Source: Chloropicon primus | Taxonomy: Eukaryota | Reading direction: 5' to 3' | DNA: 64,000 nucleotides | Assembly: GCA_023205875.1 (NCBI GenBank) | Contig: CP060764.1 | Coordinates: forward strand, 372,001 to 436,000 | Shown here: piece by piece, positions 701 to 43,219 of the stretch | Layout: the number at the start of each line of letters is the position of its first letter | Numbering within the stretch: the first letter of the stretch is position 1 | Notes under the pieces: generated by a model | What the model saw: only the letters and a program-made list of their open reading frames with translations | The model's database searches: none | What the model was told of the DNA's origin: nothing | Translations under genes and position numbers: made by a program

Positions 701-3457
701 ATGTCAACGAAGAGCGAGAAAGGGTCACCGACCAAGGACCCCGATGCCCCCGTGGAAGTGGCGTCCTCCGATATGGACGACCTCGAGCAGGAGGCTCAGG
801 AAGCTCACGAGATTTTGGACGAGGCGAAGGGCAAGTCCCTCCGCGAGCTTCAGAAGGAGTCCATCCGCATCGAGGAGAACGTCCTCATCGCTCAGAAGAG
901 GGTGCAGTTCCAGCGCCAGCAGCTGCAGCAGAAGCTCACGGAGGCCATGGAGGCCAAGCACTTGGATGAGAGGCAAAAGGTGCAGAGGGAAAAGATCGTG
1001 TCGAACGAGAAGAGGGAGGAGGAGGACAAGAAGAAGAGGAAGCAGTACAAGCGCGTCATCATCTCTCTCTTCGAGGAGCTCAAGATGAAGACGACCGAGC
1101 TGTTTCCCTTGATTGAGGCCAACAGTAAGAGGAACAGCCAGAGGAAAATCGTTCTGGAGAAACGCATGCAGTTCCAAGATACGGCCAAGATGCTCGAGGA
1201 GAGGGAGAAAAACGAGAGAGCCGAACTCCAGCAGTCCCACGAGCGCACCGCGAAGAACTTGGCCGTCTGGCAGGACCTGAACATGAGGCACGTCTCCTCG
1301 GAGAAGACGGAGGGCCTCCTCAGGGTGAACAGGTTGATGGCCCAGCAGCTCAGGGAGATCCAGAGGAAGGAGGCGGAGCAGCTGAGAGAGATGCAGCAGC
1401 TGAAAGCCAAGTACAAGCTCTCTGAGTTCGACACGGAGCTCGAGTTCGTGGCCGAGTACGAGCTGAAAAAAGCGGAGCAGCTCTTGATTCGAAGCCAGAA
1501 GACGAGCGGGCTGAAGAACGTGAGAAGAGAAGCGAAGAAGAACATACTCAGGCTCAGGGAGCAGGCAAAGGCGGCGAACAATTTGGAGCTCAACGCCTTG
1601 AAGGCGAAGCAGATGAAGGCCATCGAGGAGAACCGTGCCAAGGAGTTGAAAGCCTTTCAGCAAAGGGAAGCGAAGAGACTGGAGGCCTCGTTCGAGCAAG
1701 AGATTACGGTGATGGAGGGCGAGATGAAAGACAGGCTGGACGACAAGGGCTTCAACATGAGCACCTTCTCGAAGAGCACGAGCCACACGGGGGGACACTC
1801 CACGGACGCAGGCAGCCTAGGAACCAAGTCTCAATCCGGCGCGAGCGGCACTCAAGCTTCCGCAAGATCGATGGACAGCGAAAGTTCTTTGTCAGGAGGG
1901 AACGACTCGAGCGAGCAGGAGAAGCAGATGATGAAGGACGACGATATCGAATTTCGGAAGAGGGTGCAAGCCATGAGGGAGCAAGCCCAAGACGCGTTGA
2001 AGACGGCGGAGGAGAGGCTCCACAACATCGAGACGCAGAACGTGGAAATAGAGGAAGCGCTGTTCAAGTCCCACGAGGAGGAGATGGATCGAGTGAGGAC
2101 GGACTACGAGTCCAAGAGGAACATCGTCAGAAAGCACAATGAGGACGAGGTCTTGCACCTGATCAAGCAGCACGCCCAAGAAAAGAGCGACATCCAGAAG
2201 GCGCACGCAAGAGAGTTGCAACTCTTGGAGAGCTCCATAGAGCTGGAGACTCAATTGCACCAGAAATCTTTGCACAAGAGTCAGGTCGCGAGTCACGCAA
2301 AGAGCGAATTCCTTTCCTTCGTTTGCCACGAGCTGCGCAACCCGCTGTCCGCCATAGTAGCCGTGGTGGACATGCTTGTCAACAACAATCAGATGGACAT
2401 GGACGAAGACACCCAGGAGCACATCCAAAGTGTGAAACAGGAGTCAGAGCTGATGTGCGCTATCGTGAATGACGTCTTGGATTTCGCAAAGATCGAAGCA
2501 AGAATGCTTGTTCTCGAGCCGGTGGAGTTTAGCATCAAATCAATGGTCCACGACCTCGTGCGCGAGCAGAAGCTGAGTGCGAAGAAGACGAGACCCAACA
2601 TCGAGCTTGGCTTCGAAATTGACGACGAGATTCCCCAAATGATAAAGTCGGACCCCGTGAGAATCAGGCAAGTGCTCTTGAACCTCGTGTCGAACGCGGT
2701 GAAGTTCACGTACCATGGTTCCATCATGCTGAGCCTGAAGTGCGGGCTTGCAACTGGGCCGGACACGATGATGTTGGAGTTCTCGGTCAAGGACACCGGC
2801 GTCGGCATCGACAAGGAGAGCCTGGAGCACATCTTTGCTGCATTTTCCCAGGCAAAGCCGTCGATCACGAGAGAATTCGGTGGAACTGGCCTGGGCCTCA
2901 GTATTTCCAAGTCCTTGGTCGAGAGGCTTGGCGGAAAAATTTTCGTGGAGAGCGAGCAGAACCAGGGCACGACTTTCTCCTTCACTGTGGAGGCGAAGAT
3001 TGTTACTAAAGATGAGAGCTCTAAAGGGGATGAAGAGAAAGAGGATGCGAAGGAGGAAGATGACTTCCCTCAGGGCATCAATCTCCTCATCGTGGAGGAC
3101 TCCGCCACCCTTAGGCGCTTGTGGTCCAAGCTTCTCATTGAGCAGGGTTGCGTTGTCTCTGCCGCGGGCAACGGCCAGGAGGCCCTCGACAAGTGCGCCG
3201 AAACAAAGTACGACGTCATCCTCATGGACATCACGATGCCGGTGATGTCGGGAGACGAGGCTGTTAAAAGGCTGAGAGAATCGGGCTGGGACCAGGCCGT
3301 CATCGCGCTCACGGCGAACGCAATGGAATCGGACAAGCTCAAGTACTTGGAGGCAGGTATGGACGCCGTTCTCACCAAGCCTTGCAGGATGGACAACCTG
3401 AAGAAAGTGATTGTTGAGCAGCTCATCAAGAGACGAAACCCAATCGTCAAGATGTAA
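701..3457 (+). CDS. Hybrid histidine kinase (long N-terminal coiled coil, HisKA, HATPase_c, receiver)
   Basis: Intronless ORF, first ATG at 701. H-box FVCHELRNPL, N-box QVLLNLVSNAVKFT, G1 DTGVGI, G2 GGTGLGLSI, receiver ILMDITMPVMSG...ALTANA...TKP. Confidence 0.93.
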   Translation: MSTKSEKGSPTKDPDAPVEVASSDMDDLEQEAQEAHEILDEAKGKSLRELQKESIRIEENVLIAQKRVQFQRQQLQQKLTEAMEAKHLDERQKVQREKIVSNEKREEEDKKKRKQYKRVIISLFEELKMKTTELFPLIEANSKRNSQRKIVLEKRMQFQDTAKMLEEREKNERAELQQSHERTAKNLAVWQDLNMRHVSSEKTEGLLRVNRLMAQQLREIQRKEAEQLREMQQLKAKYKLSEFDTELEFVAEYELKKAEQLLIRSQKTSGLKNVRREAKKNILRLREQAKAANNLELNALKAKQMKAIEENRAKELKAFQQREAKRLEASFEQEITVMEGEMKDRLDDKGFNMSTFSKSTSHTGGHSTDAGSLGTKSQSGASGTQASARSMDSESSLSGGNDSSEQEKQMMKDDDIEFRKRVQAMREQAQDALKTAEERLHNIETQNVEIEEALFKSHEEEMDRVRTDYESKRNIVRKHNEDEVLHLIKQHAQEKSDIQKAHARELQLLESSIELETQLHQKSLHKSQVASHAKSEFLSFVCHELRNPLSAIVAVVDMLVNNNQMDMDEDTQEHIQSVKQESELMCAIVNDVLDFAKIEARMLVLEPVEFSIKSMVHDLVREQKLSAKKTRPNIELGFEIDDEIPQMIKSDPVRIRQVLLNLVSNAVKFTYHGSIMLSLKCGLATGPDTMMLEFSVKDTGVGIDKESLEHIFAAFSQAKPSITREFGGTGLGLSISKSLVERLGGKIFVESEQNQGTTFSFTVEAKIVTKDESSKGDEEKEDAKEEDDFPQGINLLIVEDSATLRRLWSKLLIEQGCVVSAAGNGQEALDKCAETKYDVILMDITMPVMSGDEAVKRLRESGWDQAVIALTANAMESDKLKYLEAGMDAVLTKPCRMDNLKKVIVEQLIKRRNPIVKM

Positions 3458-28638: not shown

Positions 28639-28999
28639 CATCAAAACTAAAATAACTTACACCAAGCCTTTGTAACAACATTTATATTCTTCAAATATTT
28701 TTTTAAGTGAGCCGGAAGAAACCTGCTGGTGCTGGTGGTGGACGATCCTCCCTCCCTGACCTTCCCAACGCCGTCGCAGCCGACGGACGGGAACGGACGG
28801 ACGGACGGACCCATCCATCGGTTCCGTCGGTTATGGACTTCATCATCACCATCACCATCACCATCACCATCACCCATATATGAATTTATATTTTTTTGAA
28901 TCCAAGGTGAGCCACAGAAGCTTAAGCTGCTGGGTGAGCCATGGGTATGACAGAGAGAAGGAGGGAGAGAGACTAGAGCAGCAGCAGGTGACAGGGGGA

Positions 29000-29968
29000 A
29001 TGGGGGGCTGGGTTTCTGGACAACCGAGGAATGCAGCACCTTTCTCCAGGGTGAATGGTTTGCAGTGGCCTCTGAACTTGTGGCAGCTCGGGGCTGCTAC
29101 GGTGTTCTCGGTGCAGGCCTTGCTCTTCTTCTTTTACATATGCCCCTACGAGGACGTCACCGAAGTCTTTGGCTGCATACTCTACACCGTGTGCGCTTTC
29201 ACGACCTCGGGCGTAGTCGTGCTCTTCATACCGACGAGCTACATCGATCCTGGGGATGAGGCACGCTTCACCAAGTCAGACAGGGAGGAGCTGACACGGT
29301 ATTGTGGCCACTGCGAGGCCAAGGTGGAGGAGACGAGCAGGCACTGCACCAAGTGCAACAAGTGCGTGGTCGGCCTCGACCACCACTGCAAATGGCTAAA
29401 CACTTGCATCGGAAGCAAGAACTACAAGCCGTTCATCTTTCTTGTGGGATTCTGCATGCTCCATGTTACGATCCAGTTGCTCACGAGCGTCTACTTCCTG
29501 ATCGAAAGTTTGAAGACGGGGGAGAGGTCCCGGCGGAAGCTCGAGGACGACCACGTGATGAGCGCCACGATGACTGATTTTCAGATCTCTCTTGTGGTGA
29601 ACATTTTTCTCTCCTGCTTGCTCCTGATGGTGATTGGCGAACTCTTTGTGTTCCACGTCGTTCTCATCTGGAAGAACATCACAACGTACGACTTCATTAT
29701 GGCGTCGAGAGCGATGTTCAAAGCAGAGCAGCTGCACAAGGTGACCCTGAAGAATCTTTGCTGCGGGTGCTGCACGGGCAAAAGGAATAAGGTTGCTCCT
29801 GGGGGGGGAGAAGGCCAACCGGTTCCGAGGCCGCGAGCGGACTTCAAGATCAACTTGTGTACGCTCATCACCTTCGATGGAAACAAAGTCAACCAGTGGA
29901 CAGGGGGTTCGACATCGGCCAAGAGACAGAAAGAGAGGGGAGGCGAACAAATATTCTCGCCCCTGTAA
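29000..29968 (+). CDS. DHHC protein S-acyltransferase
   Basis: YCGHC...SRHCTKCNKCVVGLDHHCKWLNTCIG and ITTYDFI. N-terminal RVNGLQWP. Confidence 0.95.
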   Translation: MGGWVSGQPRNAAPFSRVNGLQWPLNLWQLGAATVFSVQALLFFFYICPYEDVTEVFGCILYTVCAFTTSGVVVLFIPTSYIDPGDEARFTKSDREELTRYCGHCEAKVEETSRHCTKCNKCVVGLDHHCKWLNTCIGSKNYKPFIFLVGFCMLHVTIQLLTSVYFLIESLKTGERSRRKLEDDHVMSATMTDFQISLVVNIFLSCLLLMVIGELFVFHVVLIWKNITTYDFIMASRAMFKAEQLHKVTLKNLCCGCCTGKRNKVAPGGGEGQPVPRPRADFKINLCTLITFDGNKVNQWTGGSTSAKRQKERGGEQIFSPL

Positions 29969-31179: not shown

Positions 31180-33603
31180 TCAGGACGTTTCAACCAGCCT
31201 CGGCGGCCTGCGGCCTTTGCTCTTCTTCATGATAAACTCCCGGAGACTGTTGCTGTCCTTCTTTTCACTGTCTGACAGCACAGAGAATTTGCTCAGGGCT
31301 GTTTTTGTGCTTTCCACCAGCTCCCTGTGGTCCCTCTCGCTGCTGATGCCGACGCTTCCCTTGTGGATTGGGCCGCCGTAGGCGAGCAGACTCACGTCCG
31401 GCGCGGGGCCACGCCCGTACCACCTGCTTCCGCTGCCCAAACCTGGCATCTCCTTCTCCATTCGATTTACGGCAGACCTCCTGGCTTTCTGTCTCCAGGC
31501 CCTCGCGATCGGCTCCACTAGCTCCATGCTTCTCCGTGTCGCTTCCGCGTTGACCACCGCAAGAGCTTGCATGCGTGATCTGTGCCGCCGGAGACCTGTC
31601 TCCATGAGTTTTTGGATCCCTCTCGAGGCGCTTGTCTTCCAAAACTTTTTGATGGCGATCTTCTCGTCCTCCTTCATGATCTTGCCGTCTGCGATCCACC
31701 GGACCCACCGGTGGAAACCAGCCTTCAAAACGTGCGCCAGGTGGTCCTTCTCCGCCTTGTACAGGGCTAGCCTCTTCTCCTTCCTGCGTTGGACGTTCAG
31801 CCCGAACCCAAGGATGCCGGACCTTGTGAGATTTCGTGCCCTCAGAGCGTCTGCTTGTGCGATCGCCGCCTTCTTCTGCCTGCGGCGGCAGACGTAGGGA
31901 ATCCAAGCTTTGCGAATGCAGCTCCGGAGAACCCCTTGCTGGTGCTTCAAAATCGCCAAGGACAGGGTCAATTTCTTGGCGCCCTTCAGGTAAGCGTACT
32001 TCTGCCAGGATCGAAGGACCCTGGACACGAACTTGCCGAAGACTAACTTCTCCAGGGCCCTGCCCCTCCTCACGTCCTCCAGCTCCTTGACTTTCCTGCG
32101 CTCGTACGCAAGGAGCCAGACGCGAAAAGCCCTTGTGCAGCAATTGGAGCTCAGCATCTCCCTCGCTTTCCTCTCCAGAGCCTTTAGGGAGTTCAGAGAT
32201 ACCCACGAACGGAACGCCAGGGAAGCAAGGAAAGTTTTGGAGAACTTCTCAGACCTCTGCTTCAGGTCTTTCTTCCTCTGGCGCATGGGCAAGAACACGT
32301 CGTGCCAAGCAGAAAAGGCTTTCGTCAAAGCCTGCTTCTCGAGGGCAGTGTAGACCTCGAGCACTCGCTCCACATTTGCTTTCATCGCTTCCTTGTGGAT
32401 CTGCAGAACTTGCAAGCACTTCAACAGCCTCGAGACGTAAAGCCTCGACACGACGATCCTCCTCCTTCTCTCCAAGTCACTCGCTCTGAAGGCAAGCCGG
32501 TGCCACTCGGCGACAATCTTGTGCATGTTGGACCGAGTCTTGTGGGCCTCCTTCATCTCAACCCACGCGACGACCTCGCAGAACTTTCTCCATTCCCTCA
32601 GGCACGCCCTGGACGCCGCCCTCACGTAATGCGTGGTGGCCAGGCGCTTCTGAACCTCCCAGTCCTTGGCCGCGAGCCAGGAGGCCCTCCAAGCTTCGAA
32701 GGCCGCGCGGCGGCGTCTTTCCCTCCACGCCTGAGCGAGGTCTGCGAACCTCTTCCTCCTCTCGCTTCTGACTCTGCACAAGTGCCTCCACGCCAGCAAC
32801 GCAAGCCGCTTCTGCAGCCGCTCCGTGTCCGACTGGGCCCTCTCCTTGGTTTTCCTGTTCCACAGCTGCAAGGTCGACTTGCACAGCAGGTCGTTCCTTT
32901 CCTTGCACTTCTTCTTGATGGCGACGCTCTCGCTGGCCACGCCCCTCCACTGGTCCAGGACCTTCCTGTGGCGCCTCCGCCTGAAGCCCGAGACCAGCTC
33001 CTCCTGCTCCCTTGAGGAGTCTTGAGCCCTCTCCGCCCACGCGTTCAAGGCCACCACAAGTTGCCACTTCCTCCGCTCGCCCACCCGCCTCTTCCACTGC
33101 GTCAGCGACGCCCGCAGGTATATCACGGCCCTCCTGGCCAGGACGCACATGTACAGGTGCCTGGCTGACCTCCCCCTCGTTGCTGCCTCCCTCCAAGCGT
33201 CGAAGCTCTTCGAGACATATTTGCCGTACGAGACGCTCGCGTGGTGCACCAGCGCCAGCCTATGGAGCGTCCTCCCCTCCGTCCTGCTCCTCGCGAAACC
33301 CTTCAGCGCCCTCCCCTTCAGCGTCGCCTCGTACCTCCTCTCTGCCCTCCTCCCCGCAGCGAAGGACGTCCAGTGCTCCACCACTATTTTGGCCACCTTG
33401 TCCTGATACAAGCGAAAGGACTCCCTCGCGAAGGACTCCATATCGAAACTCGAAGAAACGGAAGAAGAGTAGTCTCCAGAGCCAGACGTACAAACAAGGT
33501 GCCTCTCCCCTCCATGGGAACGGGACCCCCCTTCCACCATCACGCCCACCATCCCAAAGACCTCCACCTTTGCCTCCACTCTCCTTGCCTCTCTGTCTGT
33601 CAA
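31180..33603 (-). CDS. SFI1-like centrin-binding repeat protein (start codon uncertain)
   Basis: Many basic helical repeats ending in F/L-x2-W-K/R (KSFDAWR, AFEAWR, CLREWR, KAFSAWH, AFRSWV, RAFRVWL, VLRSWQ, AGFHRWV). Confidence 0.72.
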   Translation of the reverse strand: MTDREARRVEAKVEVFGMVGVMVEGGSRSHGGERHLVCTSGSGDYSSSVSSSFDMESFARESFRLYQDKVAKIVVEHWTSFAAGRRAERRYEATLKGRALKGFARSRTEGRTLHRLALVHHASVSYGKYVSKSFDAWREAATRGRSARHLYMCVLARRAVIYLRASLTQWKRRVGERRKWQLVVALNAWAERAQDSSREQEELVSGFRRRRHRKVLDQWRGVASESVAIKKKCKERNDLLCKSTLQLWNRKTKERAQSDTERLQKRLALLAWRHLCRVRSERRKRFADLAQAWRERRRRAAFEAWRASWLAAKDWEVQKRLATTHYVRAASRACLREWRKFCEVVAWVEMKEAHKTRSNMHKIVAEWHRLAFRASDLERRRRIVVSRLYVSRLLKCLQVLQIHKEAMKANVERVLEVYTALEKQALTKAFSAWHDVFLPMRQRKKDLKQRSEKFSKTFLASLAFRSWVSLNSLKALERKAREMLSSNCCTRAFRVWLLAYERRKVKELEDVRRGRALEKLVFGKFVSRVLRSWQKYAYLKGAKKLTLSLAILKHQQGVLRSCIRKAWIPYVCRRRQKKAAIAQADALRARNLTRSGILGFGLNVQRRKEKRLALYKAEKDHLAHVLKAGFHRWVRWIADGKIMKEDEKIAIKKFWKTSASRGIQKLMETGLRRHRSRMQALAVVNAEATRRSMELVEPIARAWRQKARRSAVNRMEKEMPGLGSGSRWYGRGPAPDVSLLAYGGPIHKGSVGISSERDHRELVESTKTALSKFSVLSDSEKKDSNSLREFIMKKSKGRRPPRLVETS

Positions 33604-34080: not shown

Positions 34081-36012
34081 ATGGGGGTGCTGCTTCAGAT
34101 GGGGCTGAGCGCCGTGGTGGCGAGCCTTCCGGCGACGAAGGGTGTTGCCATCGGGCTCGCGGGCATCGCCGCGTCGCTGGAAGGAGCCAAGCGGTTGTCG
34201 AGACGACGCAGGGGGAGGAAGACCAGGTCGGGGGAAGAAGGGGTGATCCTGGAAAAGTGCTCGAGCGTCAAGTGGGCTGGAGTGACCTGCGAGTACCGCG
34301 AGAAGGGCGGAAGCGAGCGGACCATCCTGAAAGATGCCGTGGGAATCGCGGAGCCGGGTCGAATGATGGCCATCATGGGCCCGAGCGGCTCGGGAAAGAC
34401 GACCCTGCTGAGCGCTCTGGCGGGCCAGATGCCCAAGAGCAAGAAGGTCACGCTGAGCGGGGCCATCGCTTGCGAGGGCGGCCGAGTGGCGTTCGTGCCG
34501 CAGGAGGACGTCTTCTACTCGCAGCTCACCGTTGAGGAGACCCTGAGGATGGCCGCGTCCTTCAAGCTCGCGGAGGGAACCACCGAGGAGCAGAGGGAGA
34601 GGAGAGTCCAGGAAGTCATGAAGGCTCTGTCTCTGACCCAGTGCGCAGGCACGCTGGTGGGGGACAGCAAGACGAGAGGGATTTCCGGGGGGGAGAAGAA
34701 GAGGCTTAGCATCGGCCTGGAGCTTCTGAGGCAGTCAGAAGTGCCCATACTGTGCGACGAGCCGACGACGGGGCTGGATTCCTTCCAGGCAGAGAAAGTT
34801 ATGCGCGTCCTTCGCCAGCTTGCGAACTCCGGTCGGACGGTAATAATCACGATTCACCAGCCCAAGTCCTCCATCTTTGGACTGTTCGACGACGTCGTGC
34901 TAATCTCCCAGGGTCTGACTGTCTTCAGCGGCGCGATCGCGGATGCCAAGACGTTCTTCGTGGAGCGATCGGGTATTCCGCTGCCTGAGCAAACGAACCT
35001 CTCTGAGTTCTTCCTCGACGTAATCTCGATAGACTTCGACAACGAGGCAGAGACCAGAGGGAACCTGATGAAGCTCGTTAGAAACTTTCGAGACGACGCG
35101 GCCCAGGTCGCCAGAGTTGTGGGGAAGGGCCCCAGTGGAAGACGGAGGGCCCAGGCGTGCCACAAAAATTTTTGGCACAGCGTGAAGCTGCTTTACCTGA
35201 GGAGTTTCCGCCAAGTGGCGAGGGACAGGGCGACGAACATCTTGAGGCTGACCACGAATCTGAACTCTGCTATCGTTTTCGGCTCGATTTACTGGAGGAT
35301 GAAACGAACGCAATCCACCATACAAGACCGCCAAGGCTTACTGCAGGTCGTCGCCATCAACACGGCCATGAGCTCCATCACCAAAACCCTCACGGCATTT
35401 TCGAGAGAGAAGGTCGTCGTGGACAGGGAGCGGACAAAGGGCGACTATCAGATTGGAGCGTACCTGGTGGCCAAACTCGCCGCGGAGCTCCCAGTCAGCG
35501 CAGTGTTTCCGATTGTCTTTGGAGCTTTGGTTTACCCGATGTGTGGTTTAAACAAGGAGGTCGCAAAGTTCGGCAAATTCTTGTCGTTGCTGACTTTCGA
35601 GTCATTCACCAGCTCGGCCATTGGGTTGAGCGTCGGCAGCATCGTGAATTCCCCGGAGGCGGCCAACGCGTTGGGACCAGCAGTGATGGTCCTTTTCATC
35701 GTGTTTGGAGGTTACTATTGCAGGGAGGAGAACGTTCCTATTGCCTTCCGATGGATCCCCAAAGTCAGCTTGATCCGGCACGCCTTTGAAGGGCTCACAA
35801 AGAATGAGTTCAGCGGCTTGAAGTTTGAGACCAAACAGCCAACGGATGTCGCAACCGGGGAAGCAGCCCTGACGAGACTGGGCTTTGGAGAATCCTCTGT
35901 TAGCAAGTCCCTCGTTGGACTCGGACGGATCATGCTGTTCAATTACATGTTCACATATGGAATGCTGAAGGAGAGGAAGCCCGAGTTCCAGCAACCAGTG
36001 GCGTCGTCGTAA
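34081..36012 (+). CDS. Half-size ABCG transporter
   Basis: Walker A GPSGSGKTT, signature ISGGEKKR, CDEPTTGLD, TIHQP, followed by an ABC2 membrane domain (NBD-TMD order). Confidence 0.95.
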   Translation: MGVLLQMGLSAVVASLPATKGVAIGLAGIAASLEGAKRLSRRRRGRKTRSGEEGVILEKCSSVKWAGVTCEYREKGGSERTILKDAVGIAEPGRMMAIMGPSGSGKTTLLSALAGQMPKSKKVTLSGAIACEGGRVAFVPQEDVFYSQLTVEETLRMAASFKLAEGTTEEQRERRVQEVMKALSLTQCAGTLVGDSKTRGISGGEKKRLSIGLELLRQSEVPILCDEPTTGLDSFQAEKVMRVLRQLANSGRTVIITIHQPKSSIFGLFDDVVLISQGLTVFSGAIADAKTFFVERSGIPLPEQTNLSEFFLDVISIDFDNEAETRGNLMKLVRNFRDDAAQVARVVGKGPSGRRRAQACHKNFWHSVKLLYLRSFRQVARDRATNILRLTTNLNSAIVFGSIYWRMKRTQSTIQDRQGLLQVVAINTAMSSITKTLTAFSREKVVVDRERTKGDYQIGAYLVAKLAAELPVSAVFPIVFGALVYPMCGLNKEVAKFGKFLSLLTFESFTSSAIGLSVGSIVNSPEAANALGPAVMVLFIVFGGYYCREENVPIAFRWIPKVSLIRHAFEGLTKNEFSGLKFETKQPTDVATGEAALTRLGFGESSVSKSLVGLGRIMLFNYMFTYGMLKERKPEFQQPVASS

Positions 36013-36067: not shown

Positions 36068-39000
36068 TCAAAGACACAGAGTGGTTTGGGCCTTCCTTGA
36101 GGAGTACGATCTTTGACTGTACAAAGACGAGCTGGATGGACTTCTCATCACGTCTTGCAGCTCATCAAACTTCGCGAAGTCTATGGTGGAACGCCCGTCC
36201 CTGAGCACCATCATATCGGCGAACCTCTTTGAGAGCTCGAGCTGGGAGGCGCTGTTATATGAGCACTTTGCACAAACCTCAGCCTGGTAGACGGGGTCGA
36301 GGGCCGTCACGATGACCTGGAAAGCCATGACGTTGTCTGGATTTTTCATGTCTTCGGGGCTCAGGCTGAACAAAGGAGACTCCTCGTCGATCCTGTGAGT
36401 AATGTTGTAGAATCCGCTGATCGTTCCAGGCAACGCCACGGGCAGCTCGACGATTTTGACAAAGTCCTCGCCCTCGGAAGTCTCCTGCTCCTTCAGCACA
36501 AACAATCGCAGCGACGGATTGTAAAGGGTGTGGCAGCGGAGGTTACCAACGCGAAGGCAGAGGTGCCGGACCCCATCTCGCGTGAACAGGCAGATCTTGT
36601 CCGAGAAAACCACATCTGCTTTCGGAGACTGGAACTTGGCCAGCACCGCAGCGAAGACGAAGACGTTGATCAGGATGCCCGACAACTGCGAGAGCGTCGC
36701 AATCAAGTACCCAACGTTCGATGTGGGGAAGACCGTTCCATACCCCATAGAGATGACATTGGCTGCGGCAAACCTGAAAGCCATGATGACCTGCGGCGGA
36801 GGATCCCCGTTGTAGAAGATCTCCGCCTCCTCGGTGTCATTGTCGAAACGCAGGGGGATGCTGATCAGGGCGACCACGACGATTGGAAGACCGTACATGA
36901 TCATTGCCAAAAGGCAGCAGAACCACCAAGACTTCTCCAGAATGAGAAAGTACAGGGTCGAGGGCGTAAACCTCAGCAGTCTTGAAGACGTGGTTGCCGG
37001 CCTTGAAGTTGAAATCGAGCCCGCCCTTTTAATCAGCCCCCGAACCTTTTCTTTCTTCCCTCTCTGGGATTGGAGCGCGGAAAGGATTGGAGGAATGCCT
37101 TTCGCTATTTCCCAGTTTGATCCCTTGGCCAATCCATCGTCATCGACGCTTGACCCGCATGGAAGTTCCGCGCCATTCTGGTGGTTACGAGAGCTCTTCT
37201 CTCTCGCCTTGGCCAGAGCCTCTTGAATGACCGGCAAAAGCTCCGGGGACAAACCATAAATTTTCTGGCAGACCGTCCGCAGGATGTACACGTCCAGGTT
37301 GCCGCCTGGTGTGACCTCTCTGCCCAGCCCGAACACGGCTTCCCAGGACCCCCTCCCGGAGAACCTTTCGAGGTACGCAAACGTCAGAGGCGCGATCTCA
37401 GCGAAGGGTGACCCCAACTTTGCAAGGCCGCTCTCCGTCAGGTTGTAGACTGTCCACAGTTTCGAGACGAGGCGGCAATCCAACAGACCCGGTTCGTCGC
37501 CGCACAAGTAATCGCTCAGCGACAGGGCCTCCTCCCAACGACCAAGACCCTCCCTCACAATCCCTTGCAAGGCAGCCACCCCTTTGCTGACATCACCCTC
37601 GTCCGGATCAACGCCGTGCTTTTGCAGGAGGAAGGAGCGCATCCCGTTCGGCTTGGCAGGAGCCATGAGCAAGGCGAATGCCGCCATCTGCACGTCCAAC
37701 CCGTCTTTGCTCGCGCCTGCCATGGTTGGCGGCCTCGCACTTGCCAGGGAGCCCACGAGGGCTGACTTGACGACGAGCGTGTCGATTATGCTGTCGGTGC
37801 CGTCCAGCCACTCCTGGGACTGTGCCAGCCTGAGGCCCGGGGTCTCCATCTTTGCATTCACCTTTTTGTGCCACTCGGGCTTGTCCGCCAGGTCTGCACG
37901 GTAGCACCGGTACGCCTCGCCCGCTTCGGACAGGAGCAGGGCCACCGAAGCCGAGAAGGAGCACTCGGGCAGCATCGCAGATCGAGGGAACTCGGGTCCG
38001 TCCAGGACCGCGTCGCCGTAGCTCGCCCTGCCGCACCCCACAAGAAGCTCAATCTCCTCGCTCCTCGTGGGCGGCGCCTCGCTGTTGCACATCTCCGGCA
38101 GAGCGGGACGACTCATGGCGCGGACCACGTCTTCGTCTTCACCACGCCTGCTCCTGGCCAGAGCCTCTTGAATGACCGGCAAAAGCTCCGGGGACAAACC
38201 ATAAATTTTCTGGCAGACCGTCCGCAGGATGTACACGTCCAGGTTGCCGCCTGGTGTGACCTCTCTGCCCAGCCCGAACACGGCTTCCCAGGACCCCCTC
38301 CCGGAGAACCTTTCGAGGTACGCAAACGTCAGAGGCGCGATCTCAGCGAAGGGTGACCCCAACTTTGCAAGGCCGCTCTCCGTCAGGTTGTAGACTGTCC
38401 ACAGTTTCGAGACGAGGCGGCAATCCAACAGACCCGGTTCGTCGCCGCACAAGTAATCGCTCAGCGACAGGGCCTCCTCCCAACGACCAAGACCCTCCCT
38501 CACAATCCCTTGCAAGGCAGCCACCCCTTTGCTGACATCACCCTCGTCCGGATCAACGCCGTGCTTTTGCAGGAGGAAGGAGCGCATCCCGTTCGGCTTG
38601 GCAGGAGCCATGAGCAAGGCGAATGCCGCCATCTGCACGTCCAACCCGTCTTTGCTCGCGCCTGCCATGGTTGGCGGCCTCGCACTTGCCAGGGAGCCCA
38701 CGAGGGCTGACTTGACGACGAGCGTGTCGATTATGTTGTCGGTGCCGTCCAGCCACTCCTGGGACTGTGCCAGCCTGAGGCCCGGGGTCTCCATCTTTGC
38801 ATTCACCTTTTTGTGCCACTCGGGCTTGTCCGCCAGGTCTGCACGGTAGCACCGGTACGCCTCGCCCGCTTCGGACAGGAGCAGGGCCACCGAAGCCGAG
38901 AAGGAGCACTCGGGCAGCATCGCAGATCGAGGGAACTCGGGTCCGTCCAGGACCGCGTCGCCGTAGCTCGCCCTGCCGCACCCCACGAGAAGCTCAATCT

Positions 39001-40006
39001 CCTCGCTCCTCGTGGGCGGCGCCTCGCTGTTGCACATCTCCGGCAGAGCGGGACGACTCATGGCGCGGACCACGTCTTCGTCTTCACCACGCCTGCTCCT
39101 GGCCAGAGCCTCTTGAATGACCGGCAAAAGCTCCGGGGACAAACCATAAATTTTCTGGCAGACCGTCCGCAGGATGTACACGTCCAGGTTGCCGCCTGGT
39201 GTGACCTCTCTGCCCAGTCCGAACACGGCTTCCCAGGACCCCCTCCCGGAGAACCTTTCGAGGTACGCAAACGTCAGAGGCGCGATCTCAGCGAAGGGTG
39301 ACCCCAACTTTGCAAGGCCGCTCTCCGTCAGGTTGTAGACTGTCCACAGTTTCGAGACAAGGCGGCAATCCAACAGACCCGGTTCGTCGCCGCACAAGTA
39401 ATCGCTCAGCGACAGGGCCTCCTCCCAACGACCAAGACCCTCCCTCACAATCCCTTGCAAGGCAGCCACCCCTTTGCTGACATCACCCTCGTCCGGATCA
39501 ACGCCGTGCGTTTGCAGGAGGAAGGAGCGCATCCCGTTCGGCTTGGCAGGAGCCAAGGACAAGGCGAATGCCGCCATCAACACGTCCAACCCGTCTTTGC
39601 TCGCGCCTGCCATGGTTGGCGGCCTCGCACTTGCCAGGGAGCCCACGAGGGCTGACTTGACGACGAGCGTGTCGATTATGTTGTCGGTGCCGTCCAGCCA
39701 CTCCTGGGACTGTGCCAGCCTGAGGCCCGGGGTCTCCATCTTTGCATTCACCTTTTTGTGCCACTCGGGCTTGTCCACCAGGTCTGCACGGTAGCACCGG
39801 TACGCCTCGCCCGCTTCGGACAGGAGCAGGGCCACCGAAGCCGAGAAGCAGCACTCGTGCAGCATCGCAGATCGAGGGAACTCGGGTCCGTCCAGGACCG
39901 CGTCGCCGTAGCTCGCCCTGCCGCACCCCACGAGAAGCTCAATCTCCTCGCTCCTCGTGGGCGGCGCCTCGCTGTTGCACATCTCCGGCAGAGCGGGACG
40001 ACTCAT
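36068..40006 (-). CDS. Fusion of three DHAR/CLIC-like GST-fold units with an inward-rectifier K+ channel (Kir)
   Basis: Single uninterrupted ORF, first ATG at 40006. Each unit contains EC[CS]FS...DKPEW...ETPGL and YLCGDEPGLLDCRLVSKLW. The C-terminus has TM1, ISMGYG, TM2 AKFQSPK, VFSDK...RDG...CLRVGNLR and THRIDEESPL. Confidence 0.85.
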   Translation of the reverse strand: MSRPALPEMCNSEAPPTRSEEIELLVGCGRASYGDAVLDGPEFPRSAMLHECCFSASVALLLSEAGEAYRCYRADLVDKPEWHKKVNAKMETPGLRLAQSQEWLDGTDNIIDTLVVKSALVGSLASARPPTMAGASKDGLDVLMAAFALSLAPAKPNGMRSFLLQTHGVDPDEGDVSKGVAALQGIVREGLGRWEEALSLSDYLCGDEPGLLDCRLVSKLWTVYNLTESGLAKLGSPFAEIAPLTFAYLERFSGRGSWEAVFGLGREVTPGGNLDVYILRTVCQKIYGLSPELLPVIQEALARSRRGEDEDVVRAMSRPALPEMCNSEAPPTRSEEIELLVGCGRASYGDAVLDGPEFPRSAMLPECSFSASVALLLSEAGEAYRCYRADLADKPEWHKKVNAKMETPGLRLAQSQEWLDGTDNIIDTLVVKSALVGSLASARPPTMAGASKDGLDVQMAAFALLMAPAKPNGMRSFLLQKHGVDPDEGDVSKGVAALQGIVREGLGRWEEALSLSDYLCGDEPGLLDCRLVSKLWTVYNLTESGLAKLGSPFAEIAPLTFAYLERFSGRGSWEAVFGLGREVTPGGNLDVYILRTVCQKIYGLSPELLPVIQEALARSRRGEDEDVVRAMSRPALPEMCNSEAPPTRSEEIELLVGCGRASYGDAVLDGPEFPRSAMLPECSFSASVALLLSEAGEAYRCYRADLADKPEWHKKVNAKMETPGLRLAQSQEWLDGTDSIIDTLVVKSALVGSLASARPPTMAGASKDGLDVQMAAFALLMAPAKPNGMRSFLLQKHGVDPDEGDVSKGVAALQGIVREGLGRWEEALSLSDYLCGDEPGLLDCRLVSKLWTVYNLTESGLAKLGSPFAEIAPLTFAYLERFSGRGSWEAVFGLGREVTPGGNLDVYILRTVCQKIYGLSPELLPVIQEALAKAREKSSRNHQNGAELPCGSSVDDDGLAKGSNWEIAKGIPPILSALQSQRGKKEKVRGLIKRAGSISTSRPATTSSRLLRFTPSTLYFLILEKSWWFCCLLAMIMYGLPIVVVALISIPLRFDNDTEEAEIFYNGDPPPQVIMAFRFAAANVISMGYGTVFPTSNVGYLIATLSQLSGILINVFVFAAVLAKFQSPKADVVFSDKICLFTRDGVRHLCLRVGNLRCHTLYNPSLRLFVLKEQETSEGEDFVKIVELPVALPGTISGFYNITHRIDEESPLFSLSPEDMKNPDNVMAFQVIVTALDPVYQAEVCAKCSYNSASQLELSKRFADMMVLRDGRSTIDFAKFDELQDVMRSPSSSSLYSQRSYSSRKAQTTLCL

Positions 40007-40031
40007 GGCGCGGACCACGTCTTCGTCTTCA
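37210..40031. repeat. Tandem triplication of a 945-bp coding unit
   Basis: Near-identical sequence at a 945-bp period (e.g. GGCCAGAGCC at 37211, 38156, 39101) with only a handful of substitutions. Confidence 0.97.
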
Positions 40032-40227
40032 ACCAACGCCAACTCTCTCCTCTCCTCTTCCTCTTCCTCTCTCTCTCTCTCTCCTCTGGCTGAAATCGAG
40101 AGAGAGAGAATAACGGGCGAGCAGGCGTTACGGCGATTGGGTTGTTGAGAGGATAAGAATAGCATCGCGAGACGTTCGCAAGTACGCGTGTACCAGGCGT
40201 CGCCAACTGCGAGAGAAGGCCTAGACG

Positions 40228-42190
40228 ATGGCGGATAAGGCTCCGCTTCCCTCGAATATTGGTACCTACCTTGGTGAGTTTGCTTTTTTGACCTAGATGA
40301 GCTTGAAACCCTCGTCCTCCCTCTCTCTCTTGTGCCACGGCTCGAATGGTGTTGGGACTAACGGCGGGGTGTCTGTGCCTGGTTGAACGTTTCTCGCCCT
40401 CCTTTGCTTTTGTCAGGGCGCCGGTTTGTTGAGTTTGGTGTGGAGGTAAGTGCTTTTGAGCAAGAAAACGACGCCTGCCCCCCCCCAGCGCATGGCCGTA
40501 GGATGCCCTCTTGTTCTTGTTCTGACCTGCTGACTTCTTGGTCTAGGACTTTTTCTGCGTGCCAGGGGATTACAACTTGGTCCTCTTGGACCAGCTTTTG
40601 GTTGTTCCTGGACTCAGGATGATCAATTGCTGCAACGAGTTGAACGCCGGCTATGCGGCCGACGGCTACGCCAGAGTGAAAGGCGTCGGCGTACTGGTTG
40701 TCACGTTCACAGTGGGCGGCCTCTCGGCGATCAATGCGGTGGCTGGGGCGTACTCTGACAACCTCCCGCTCGTCGTGATCAGCGGGGGTCCGAACTCGAA
40801 CGACTTTGGGACGGAGAGGGTGCTCCACCACACCATCGGCCACCCTAATTTTCGCCAAACCTTGGAGTGCTACAAGCAGGTGACCTGCCACCAAGCGGTG
40901 ATCAAGAGCATGGAGAATGCTGCTCAGAAGATCGACGAGAGCCTTGAAATGGCTTTGAAGTGCAAGAAACCCGTGTACATCGAAGTGGCGTGCAACCTCA
41001 GCGGCGTCGAGCACGGATCCTTGCTCGGCCCTCGCCCGCTCATCTTCCCCACGGAGCTCAGCAACGAGTCTGAGCTGCACGCTTGCGTCGATGACATCCT
41101 GGGAGTTCTCAGCGCCGCGGTCAAGCCCGTGCTCGTGTCTGGTTGCAGGATCAGGAAGCACGACGCCAAGGAAGCGCTGAAACTTCTCGCGGATGCCTGC
41201 GGCTATGCTTTTGCCAGCATGCCGAACGGCAAGGGCATGATTGACGAGGATCACCCGAATTACATCGGGACGTACTGGGGCCAAGTGAGTGACCCCTACG
41301 TCTGCGAGACGGTCGAATCCGCGGATTTTTACCTTTTTATCGGTCCCGTTTTCAATGACTACACGACAACAGGATATTCGACGCTCGTGAAGGAGGAGAA
41401 GATGATCATGATCAGGGGGAGGGAGGTCTCGATCTGTGGAAGGAAGAGGTACCACGGGGTGAGGATGGCAGATGTGCTCGAGCTGCTGTCCAGAAAGGTG
41501 AAGAAGAACGACGCCAGCATGAAGAACTTCGAGCGGATGTTTGTCCCTCCTGGGAATCCTCCGGCCCTGGGAAAAGGGGAGAAGCTCCAGACCAACGTGC
41601 TGATGCACCACATCCAGGCTCTGGTGACGGAAGGGAACTTCGCCCTGTGCGTGGAAACTGGAGACAGCTGGTTCAATGGGCAGAAGCTGAGGCTGCCAAA
41701 GGGGACCCCATACGAGTTCCAAATGCAGTACGGCTCCATCGGGTGGAGCGTCGGCGCAACGCTGGGGATGAGCACAGCTCTCAAGGATGAGAGGAGGGTC
41801 CTCGCCCTCATTGGAGACGGCAGCTTTCAAATGACGGCGCAGGACGTGTCGTCCATGGTCAGGTTCGGGGCGAACCCTCTGATCATACTCATCAATAACG
41901 ATGGGTACACGATCGAGGTGGAGATCCACGACGGGCCCTACAACAACATCTTGCAGTGGGATTACTGCAAGATGGTAGACGCGGTCTCAAACGGCCAGAC
42001 AGCCTTCACCTACAAGGTCACCACCGAGACGGAGGCGGAAGAGGCTCTCAGACTGGCTTGTTCCAAGGAGAGGAGCAAACACCTCAACTTCATCGAGTGC
42101 ATGATCGACAGAGATGACTGCTCCAAGGAGCTTCTCGAGTGGGGAAGCCGAGTTGCAGCGGCAAACGGCCGACCTCCTAGCATGTCATAA
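40228..42190 (+). CDS. PDC: Pyruvate decarboxylase
   Basis: Exons 40228-40273, 40417-40445, 40547-42190. VPGDYNL, CCNELNAGYAADGYAR, VLHHTIG, QYGSIGW, GDGSFQ...NN TPP motif, IEVEIH. Confidence 0.95.
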
Positions 42191-42532
42191 AAAGAAAGGA
42201 CGAACAAGTTTCTCCTCCATTTTTCATTCTATTTTCTTCATTTTCTAAAAGAAAGGACCCCTTCTTCTTCAATTACGTCTTGGACTCCACCTTCTCTTCT
42301 CCGAGACGAAGACGGAATCATCACGGATGCCCTATAGCCAGTAACAATCCAGTAGCAATCCAGTAGCAACACCTCCTCCTCCCTTCCCTCCTCCTCCTCC
42401 TCCTCCCTCCTCTCCTCACAAGCTCACAAGGGATTAGCACACATTGTCCTTGGGATGAGACTCGAGCTCGAGTCTCAAAGAAGAGAAGGGAAGGGAAGGG
42501 GAGAGAGAGAGAGAGAGAGAAGCGTCGCGTCG

Positions 42533-42571
<39 letters not shown>

Positions 42572-42573
<2 letters not shown>

Positions 42574-43219
42574 GTACAAGGCAAGCGTTGTGGTGGCCAC
42601 TATGGCCGTGCTGATGGTCGCTGGAGCGAGCGCTCACAAGGTCGACTTGAACTTTTTGAACAACATCGAGGTGAACATCCCCGTGGAGTTTGACAACGGA
42701 AACACCTACAACTTGGCTGGCAAGGCGGAGAAGCTCTTGGACAAGGCCTTGGACGTGGCCGAGAACTACGTGGAGCACTTGCTCGAGGGAATGAACCACG
42801 AGGAGGTTGTGGAGCCCACCGAGGAGCGCCCAGGACCATTCTGCAGAAAGGCCGTCGCCGCTTGCAAGGAAGATGCCAAGCAGTGCTTTGGAGCCTTGAA
42901 GAGGTGCCCACACATCAAGAGGTGCGCTGCCGAGAAGAAGAAGTGCTGGTCCGCCATCAAGGAGTGCAAGGAGGACAAGGACAGAAAGGAGTGCAGGGAG
43001 GCCAAGGAGACCTGCGTTGACGCCAAGGAGACCTGCACCAGGGTCATCAAGGGCTGCAAGGAGTGCTGGAGGCCATGCGGTGCCGCCAAGGCCAAGTGCG
43101 CTGCTGCCAAGCACATCTGCCACAAGAAGGGCTTGCTCGAGCACTTGAAGGATTTGATCCCTGAGGGACCTCTCCCAAGAAGAGCCGGAAACCCATTGAT
43201 CCTTCCAAACAACGCCTAA
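42572..43219 (+). CDS. Secreted Cys/Lys-rich protein of unknown function
   Basis: Signal peptide MYKASVVVATMAVLMVAGASA, 15 Cys mostly spaced 7 apart, strong codon bias similar to the ADP/ATP carrier gene. Confidence 0.8.

Follow-up and report, generated by a model that had tools for sequence, protein, structure and literature searches.

Can a channel of the inward-rectifier (Kir) type carry, within its own polypeptide, a thiol enzyme that serves as its gating module? The question is raised by a minus-strand gene in a 64,000-nucleotide stretch of the Chloropicon primus genome (assembly GCA_023205875.1, contig CP060764.1, positions 372,001 to 436,000; this whole stretch is the window, and coordinates are counted from its first base). 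A sequence-only reading had described the gene as a candidate K+ channel gated by glutathione or redox state, with three glutathione S-transferase (GST) units fused to a Kir pore. The frame was found to run from an ATG at 40006 to a stop at 36068 without an internal stop, and encodes a protein of 1312 amino acids (1365 if an alternative in-frame ATG at 40165 is used) consisting of three GST units, a leader, a Kir body and a Cys-bearing tail. The length, the three 315-amino-acid units (a 945-bp period) and all of the sequence motifs listed in that reading were recovered. The gene is real and encodes a Kir-type channel with fused cysteine-type GSTs (Cys-GSTs), an arrangement which was not found described. 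By its sequence relationships it is a recent permuted and amplified member of a larger Kir clade, the GST-first triple layout not being the conserved feature. What is new here are three family cysteines (GST catalytic, CD-loop and tail), the last of which was kept through the permutation.

The domain assignment was carried by profile and structure-database searches. Pfam matched the whole protein to GST_C_2 three times (E 9.7e-21), to GST_N_2 three times (E 1.5e-13) and to IRK_C once (E 6.3e-13; 52.9 bits against a cut-off of 22.5), in line with the sequence-only reading, with the IRK transmembrane family below its cut-off (E 0.13). When a single GST unit was searched alone, GST_C_2 was the only family to pass (27.5 bits, cut-off 24.9). 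Among solved structures, the top sequence match was KirBac3.1 for the channel part (E 1.5e-19) and dehydroascorbate reductase (DHAR) for the N-domain of the GST unit (E 4e-4). No CPA2 antiporter or KTN/RCK domain was present among the 16 Pfam matches at E ≤1, and GST and Kir account for the chain. Four of five proteins had no match in NCBIfam, the fifth having one sub-threshold match to maiA.

At the DNA level the GST region is a tandem array (37210-40031) of three 932-bp copies with a 945-bp period, separated by two identical 13-bp junctions (39087-39099 and 38142-38154). The first copy (39100-40031) consists of 25 bp of upstream DNA followed by unit 1, which has the motif CCFS with the catalytic Cys52 at 39851-39853, while the second (38155-39086) and third (37210-38141) encode units 2 and 3 with the motif CSFS and Cys367 and Cys682, respectively. 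As each copy starts 25 bases upstream of the position of the start codon, a piece of upstream DNA was turned into an in-frame spacer. Over 906 coding bases, copies 1 and 2 differ at 11 positions, 2 and 3 at two, and 1 and 3 at 13; such near-identity indicates a recent tandem amplification, the simplest history of which would be one duplication and a later unequal exchange. No signal of selection on unit 1 was observed in the comparison with unit 2, where seven of nine changed codons were non-synonymous and approximately 75% of sites are expected to be so.

It is very improbable that the arrangement is an artefact, in the form of an over-expanded assembly or of two genes read as one. The C. primus database protein QDZ23791.1 (P0002; automatic annotation only), which represents this gene but has two units in place of three, shows that copy number varies between assemblies and would fit over-expansion, as would the two-base difference between units 2 and 3 and the fact that no contig, from DNA or RNA, covers the whole frame or the array. 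Contig depth in two DNA sequencing runs was 282 over the repeat and 112-125 over the flank in X1 (2.3-2.5x), and 343 and 131 in X2 (2.6x), where three copies should give a ratio of 2.7 and two a ratio of 1.7; contig depth is not a direct copy number and these runs may themselves be the source of the assembly, but the values favour three copies over two. The GST-to-channel joint was bridged by a contig of X5 (36088-37619), which extends from the Kir body through 410 bases of unit 3, and by one of X10 (37161-37374), an RNA library according to its record. X5 was guessed to be an RNA run, as it skips two GT-AG introns of a neighbouring gene and as an adjacent ABC-transporter gene is covered by a DNA run only. 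A contig of X4 (38914-39129) includes a unit junction and only 30 letters beyond it, one below the threshold for bridging. The gene is therefore expressed at least over the fusion joint, and separate GST and Kir messages, named in the sequence-only reading as an outcome that would overturn it, are contradicted by the RNA contigs. The existence of dozens of fused relatives also argues against an artefact.

These relatives were placed in a tree of 112 Kir domains, each covering at least 195 profile positions (the IQ-TREE run contained all 58 rows of the clade described here and 15 of the 54 rows outside it). The 58 domains formed a single clade (support 0.944 in FastTree, 97/87 in IQ-TREE), and a GST N-domain was detected, with a profile seeded with the window's own unit, in 46 of them compared to none of the 54 outside; counts over clade rows concern related sequences and hence are not independent events. 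Named members come from chlorophytes (Chloropicon, Pycnococcus and Pseudoscourfieldia), Prasinoderma, Picozoa single-cell genomes, Hondaea and Amoebophrya, most others being metagenome proteins. The architecture search suggested in the sequence-only reading thus showed the Kir-GST pairing to be kept far beyond the C. primus genome, which strengthens the idea of redox coupling.

Searches with unit 3 plus the Kir part returned closest relatives in the reverse order (Kir, GST, short tail). One of them is a C. primus paralogue, QDZ22150.1 (P0004; automatic annotation only), which has the same domains in that order, a GMGYG filter, and identity to the window protein at 187 of 274 Kir positions and 137 of 288 GST positions; a loose end in X2 matches it (compared by eye), which places the two genes in a single sample. 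Layouts in the clade include Kir with one to five GSTs, one to three GSTs ahead of Kir, and GSTs on both sides, and the GST-first order corresponds to four separate changes on the tree. The window gene falls in a group of six rows (100/98), the other five of which are Kir-first. Its linker (36980-37209) corresponds by homology to the leader with which Kir-first relatives begin: none of 500 shuffles attained the alignment score with the leader of P0004, of P0006 or of P0018, while 32 of 500 did so for P0008. The tail (36071-36145) matches the one behind the GST of P0054 (0 of 500 shuffles), and in a tree of GST domains P0054 and the window GST units are sisters (SH-aLRT 98). These matches and this sisterhood indicate that the GST, which had lain between pore and tail, was relocated ahead of the pore and left the tail in place. 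The 12 GST domains per tetramer in the sequence-only reading therefore stand as far as three units are present here, but as a recent and labile state, the family norm being one unit behind the pore.

Duplication of the GST within a gene has happened repeatedly. The GST-domain tree was built by a quick method and carries long-branch warnings for its deep branches; by this tree the diverged copies of P0053, P0056, P0076, P0082 and P0116 are old, whereas the identical copies in some metagenome proteins could be assembly errors. Stand-alone GSTs of the same type gave four matches, every one on a short contig of 1.5-4.2 kb. It was also observed that P0003, P0014 and P0017-P0020, a cluster with one- and two-GST forms, share 28 additional residues halfway along the second transmembrane helix (TM2), which look like an unspliced in-frame intron of the gene call. 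Outside the clade, tandem two-Kir proteins were found (P0104, P0130, P0140, P0146, P0158, P0164 and P0180), with very odd filter positions in P0140 and P0158.

The units have the two-domain build of Cys-GSTs (a thioredoxin-like N-domain and a helical C-domain), as seen both in the Pfam matches of the window protein and in an AlphaFold2 model of P0054 (mean pLDDT 89), whose GST is identical to the window unit at 161 of 278 positions (58%). The closest structure to this model was DHAR1 (5el8; Z 20.0, rmsd 2.6, 211 residues aligned), followed by CLIC, TDR1 and omega GSTs, and the DHAR/CLIC-like assignment of the sequence-only reading was thus borne out. A survey of 85 GST N-domains, taken from 56 proteins, found the catalytic Cys in 83 (two gaps), the cis-Pro in 76 (nine gaps) and a Lys at the position of DHAR Lys47 in 67; the corresponding residues of the window unit are Cys52, cis-Pro93 and Lys79, with Thr107 at the Ser/Thr73 position. 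At the position of DHAR Asp72, 71 rows are filled: 30 carry Asp or Glu, and 27, the window unit among them, carry Gly. Shared with DHAR, CLIC and omega GSTs are therefore the fold, the catalytic Cys, the cis-Pro and the Lys47 and Ser/Thr73 positions, whereas the window units are only 14-19% identical to these proteins, are approximately 300 amino acids long with extra segments, and are fused to a channel.

Whether the units act as DHARs is doubtful, as the hallmarks CPFS/CPFC and Asp72 are replaced by CCFS/CSFS and Gly106; at the ascorbate site, the Asp19 position is occupied by Glu51, and Lys8 and Lys210 lie beyond the aligned stretch. In AtDHAR2, Lys47 binds the glycyl carboxylate of glutathione and Asp72 its gamma-glutamyl amine, and CLIC1 binds glutathione with few contacts (PMC5307357); loss of Asp72 consequently does not exclude glutathione binding.

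The Kir body (residues 1010-1287; 36146-36979) contains the first transmembrane helix (TM1), a pore helix, the filter, TM2 and the cytoplasmic domain, as do KirBac3.1 and the eukaryotic Kir1-7 channels (Pfam IRK/IRK_C), from which the window protein differs in its filter, in the positions of D172, E224, G177 and K219, in its fused GSTs and in its Cys tail. A 691-residue AlphaFold2 model of P0004 was well folded in both Kir and GST (mean pLDDT 82, pTM 0.66), and matched KirBac3.1 (E 1.7e-18). At the filter position (residues 1086-1090; 36737-36751) the window has SMGYG and not the canonical T-[IVL]-G-[YF]-G, which occurs in four of 58 clade rows compared to 47 of 54 outside; [TS]-x-G-[YF]-G fits 22 of the 58. 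The pore helix lacks Glu/Thr, and Asn-Val-Ile replaces Thr-Gln-Thr ahead of the filter. In Kir2.1 numbering, counted from chain 7zdz_A, Asn is found at both D172 and E224, the acidic positions of strong rectifiers of the Kir2 type, with Ala at G177 and Cys at K219. The basic cluster after TM2 is shortened. Of the basic residues that form the binding cluster for phosphatidylinositol 4,5-bisphosphate in eukaryotic Kir channels, some following TM2 and others in the CD loop (K182-R189, R218, K219), the K182, K187 and R218 positions are kept, while those of K185, K188/R189 and K219 are not basic. The TM2 Gly is invariant in the clade (58 of 58), and other TM2 and cytoplasmic-domain residues are conserved.

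On these residues, rectification is expected to be weak. The K+ inward rectifier of the sequence-only reading thus holds as regards a Kir-type pore, whereas the odd filter and the Asn residues cast doubt on its K+ selectivity and on strong rectification; some preference for K+ is nevertheless somewhat more probable than its absence. A precedent is TbIRK of Trypanosoma brucei, a protist Kir which likewise has a non-canonical filter yet prefers K+, and whose abstract mentions no GST fusion (PMC5429665).

The remaining two cysteines are as restricted to the clade as the GST. A Cys at the penultimate position (-1) was found in 42 of 58 clade rows and in none of the 54 outside (overall Cys frequency 1.9%), and among hand-picked fused proteins 41 of 51 ended in this way compared to six of 95 other matches, five of those six lying in the clade. 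The window tail ends in Leu-Cys1311-Leu, and residues flanking the tail Cys are almost all hydrophobic in 50 tail-bearing proteins. The CD-loop Cys (Cys1158 in the window, 36533-36535, aligned with K219 of Kir2.1) was present in 45 of 58 clade rows and in none of the 54 outside. An obligatory disulfide between the tail and the CD loop was ruled out, as seven GST-bearing rows retain the tail Cys without the CD-loop Cys, and a polybasic lipid or membrane anchor was weakened by the variable charge ahead of the tail Cys (-9 to +9). A gene for a DHHC palmitoyltransferase lies 6 kb away (28880-29968, plus strand), probably by chance, and would be relevant if the tail Cys were acylated.

Taken together, these residues suggest a cation channel gated by thiol redox state, with the fused GST as its sensor, a reading whose chances we regard as evenly balanced. 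Four subunits would form a weakly rectifying, probably K+-preferring pore; a shift in the glutathione/ascorbate pool would oxidise or glutathionylate the catalytic Cys of the GST, and disulfide exchange would pass from there to the penultimate tail Cys, the CD-loop Cys under the membrane, or both. This exchange would tether or free the cytoplasmic domain and so shift the gate, with glutathione providing the reset. As coupling would proceed by contact and thiol exchange and not by chain order, the GST would be free to precede or follow the pore and to multiply, and the three copies would represent a recent change of dosage and not a separate design. A more specific version can be put forward only tentatively, namely that the end of the tail enters the glutathione site (G-site) of the fused GST as a tethered glutathione and forms a reversible disulfide with the catalytic Cys. 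The Cys-X-carboxylate end may be likened to the Cys-Gly end of glutathione, and a G-site which keeps the carboxylate-binding Lys but often loses the amine-binding Asp would suit a peptide ligand.

Besides the array that no contig covers, several observations weigh against this gating scheme. The tail is disordered and undocked in both AlphaFold2 monomers (pLDDT <50; residues 309-329 of P0054 and 672-691 of P0004), and 16 of 58 clade rows lack it, many of these being apparent fragments. In five clade rows, of uncertain completeness, both the tail and the CD-loop Cys are kept but a GST was not detected. The filter looks collapsed in some clade rows, which makes conduction uncertain for the family. 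In the P0008 cluster, seven of 15 listed members (P0022, P0023, P0026, P0028, P0029, P0034 and P0035) run eight residues past the Cys-Leu end, so that a free carboxylate is not always present there; these members amount to a natural stop-loss variant masking the tail.

Three other functions were weighed, each of them rather unlikely. The GST could bind glutathione or glutathione-electrophile conjugates, either without a covalent bond or in a stable adduct, and gate the pore allosterically in the manner of bacterial Kef systems, in which glutathione status controls K+ flux (PMC10224563), the tail then being a separate signal. In its favour, the GST fold retains the G-site Lys, cis-Pro and Ser/Thr, and the pTM of the P0004 model may be compatible with some defined GST-Kir packing; the frequent loss of the Asp for gamma-glutamyl binding is unfavourable, and an invariant catalytic Cys and two further clade-specific cysteines would be left unexplained. 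Alternatively, the GST could be a tethered glutaredoxin which deglutathionylates the channel's own cysteines and so keeps it working under oxidative stress, without being the physiological gate, a proposal of similarly low probability. Its DHAR/CLIC/omega fold, a CD-loop Cys at a gating-relevant position and the rescue of glutathionylated ATP-sensitive K+ channels by glutaredoxin (PMC11631806) are all consistent with it, but the tail has no role in such a scheme, and tail and GST cysteines persist in the seven rows without the CD-loop Cys.

It is equally improbable that the Kir body is a membrane scaffold or a non-selective leak, uncoupled from the GST and with the tail acting as a targeting, acylation or PDZ-type signal. 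The decay of the filter through the family, the free domain order, the undocked tail of the models and the five tailed rows without a detected GST would all be accommodated. PDZ ligands, however, do not usually need an invariant Cys, the window retains GYG, and the clade retains the TM2 Gly and the conserved residues of TM2 and the cytoplasmic domain; K+ selection by TbIRK through a non-canonical filter, as its abstract has it (PMC5429665), also argues against a mere leak. The thiol-redox-gated channel with the GST as sensor is thus preferred to each of these.

Parts of the proposed logic are known from other systems. Cysteine redox state shifts the gate of Kir channels, through S-glutathionylation in Kir6.1 and Kir4.1/5.1 and through oxidation in GIRK2 (PMC11631806, PMC10165546), but in these cases any thiol enzyme is a protein distinct from the channel, and other positions carry the cysteines. 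KefB/KefC with KefF/KefG may share the logic of glutathione status acting on K+ flux (PMC10224563), but they are K+/H+ antiporters with a KTN/RCK domain and share no domain with the window protein; they are at most analogues, and the statement in the sequence-only reading that they are not homologous is upheld by the Pfam result. Literature searches aimed at a Kir-GST fusion, with most subscription journals outside their coverage, returned no description; potassium, IRK, channel and Chloropicon are all absent from the main text of a 2026 plant GST survey (PMC13495499), and public records of Kir-GST proteins carry automatic names only.

If the redox-gating proposal is true, phytoplankton and other marine protists, whose ion channels are almost entirely uncharacterised, would possess a Kir channel in which a built-in thiol enzyme acts as the gating module, and glutathione redox state (light, oxidative stress) would be linked to membrane potential or K+ balance. 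Under the tethered-glutathione version, cytosolic redox state would be converted into membrane conductance by parts whose order and GST number can be freely rearranged. The idea lends itself to direct testing, as three cysteines can be named and one species has a natural Kir-GST/GST-Kir pair; in the family as a whole, filter decay and domain permutation can be studied as a natural experiment.

The surroundings of the gene were also inspected. A divergent gene for a thiamine pyrophosphate-dependent, pyruvate decarboxylase-like enzyme (40118-42190, plus strand) starts within approximately 220 bp of the channel ATG; RNA contigs place its transcription from about 40118 and its GT-AG introns near 40272-40416 and 40443-40545, and an upstream Kir exon was ruled out, as the region belongs to this gene. 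On the other side, an ABCG-type half transporter (34081-36012, plus strand), which has no cover in three RNA-like runs, converges on the channel gene, the two stops being 55 bp apart. A frame at 42356-43219 (plus strand) begins with a hydrophobic, signal-like segment, contains a repeat region rich in Cys and Lys, and has no Pfam match, and the 790-amino-acid Trp/Arg-rich helical repeat protein at 31180-33552 (minus strand), with no Pfam match at 1e-4, presumably resembles Sfi1-type repeats. Further away, a hybrid histidine kinase with a receiver domain is encoded at 701-3457 (plus strand).

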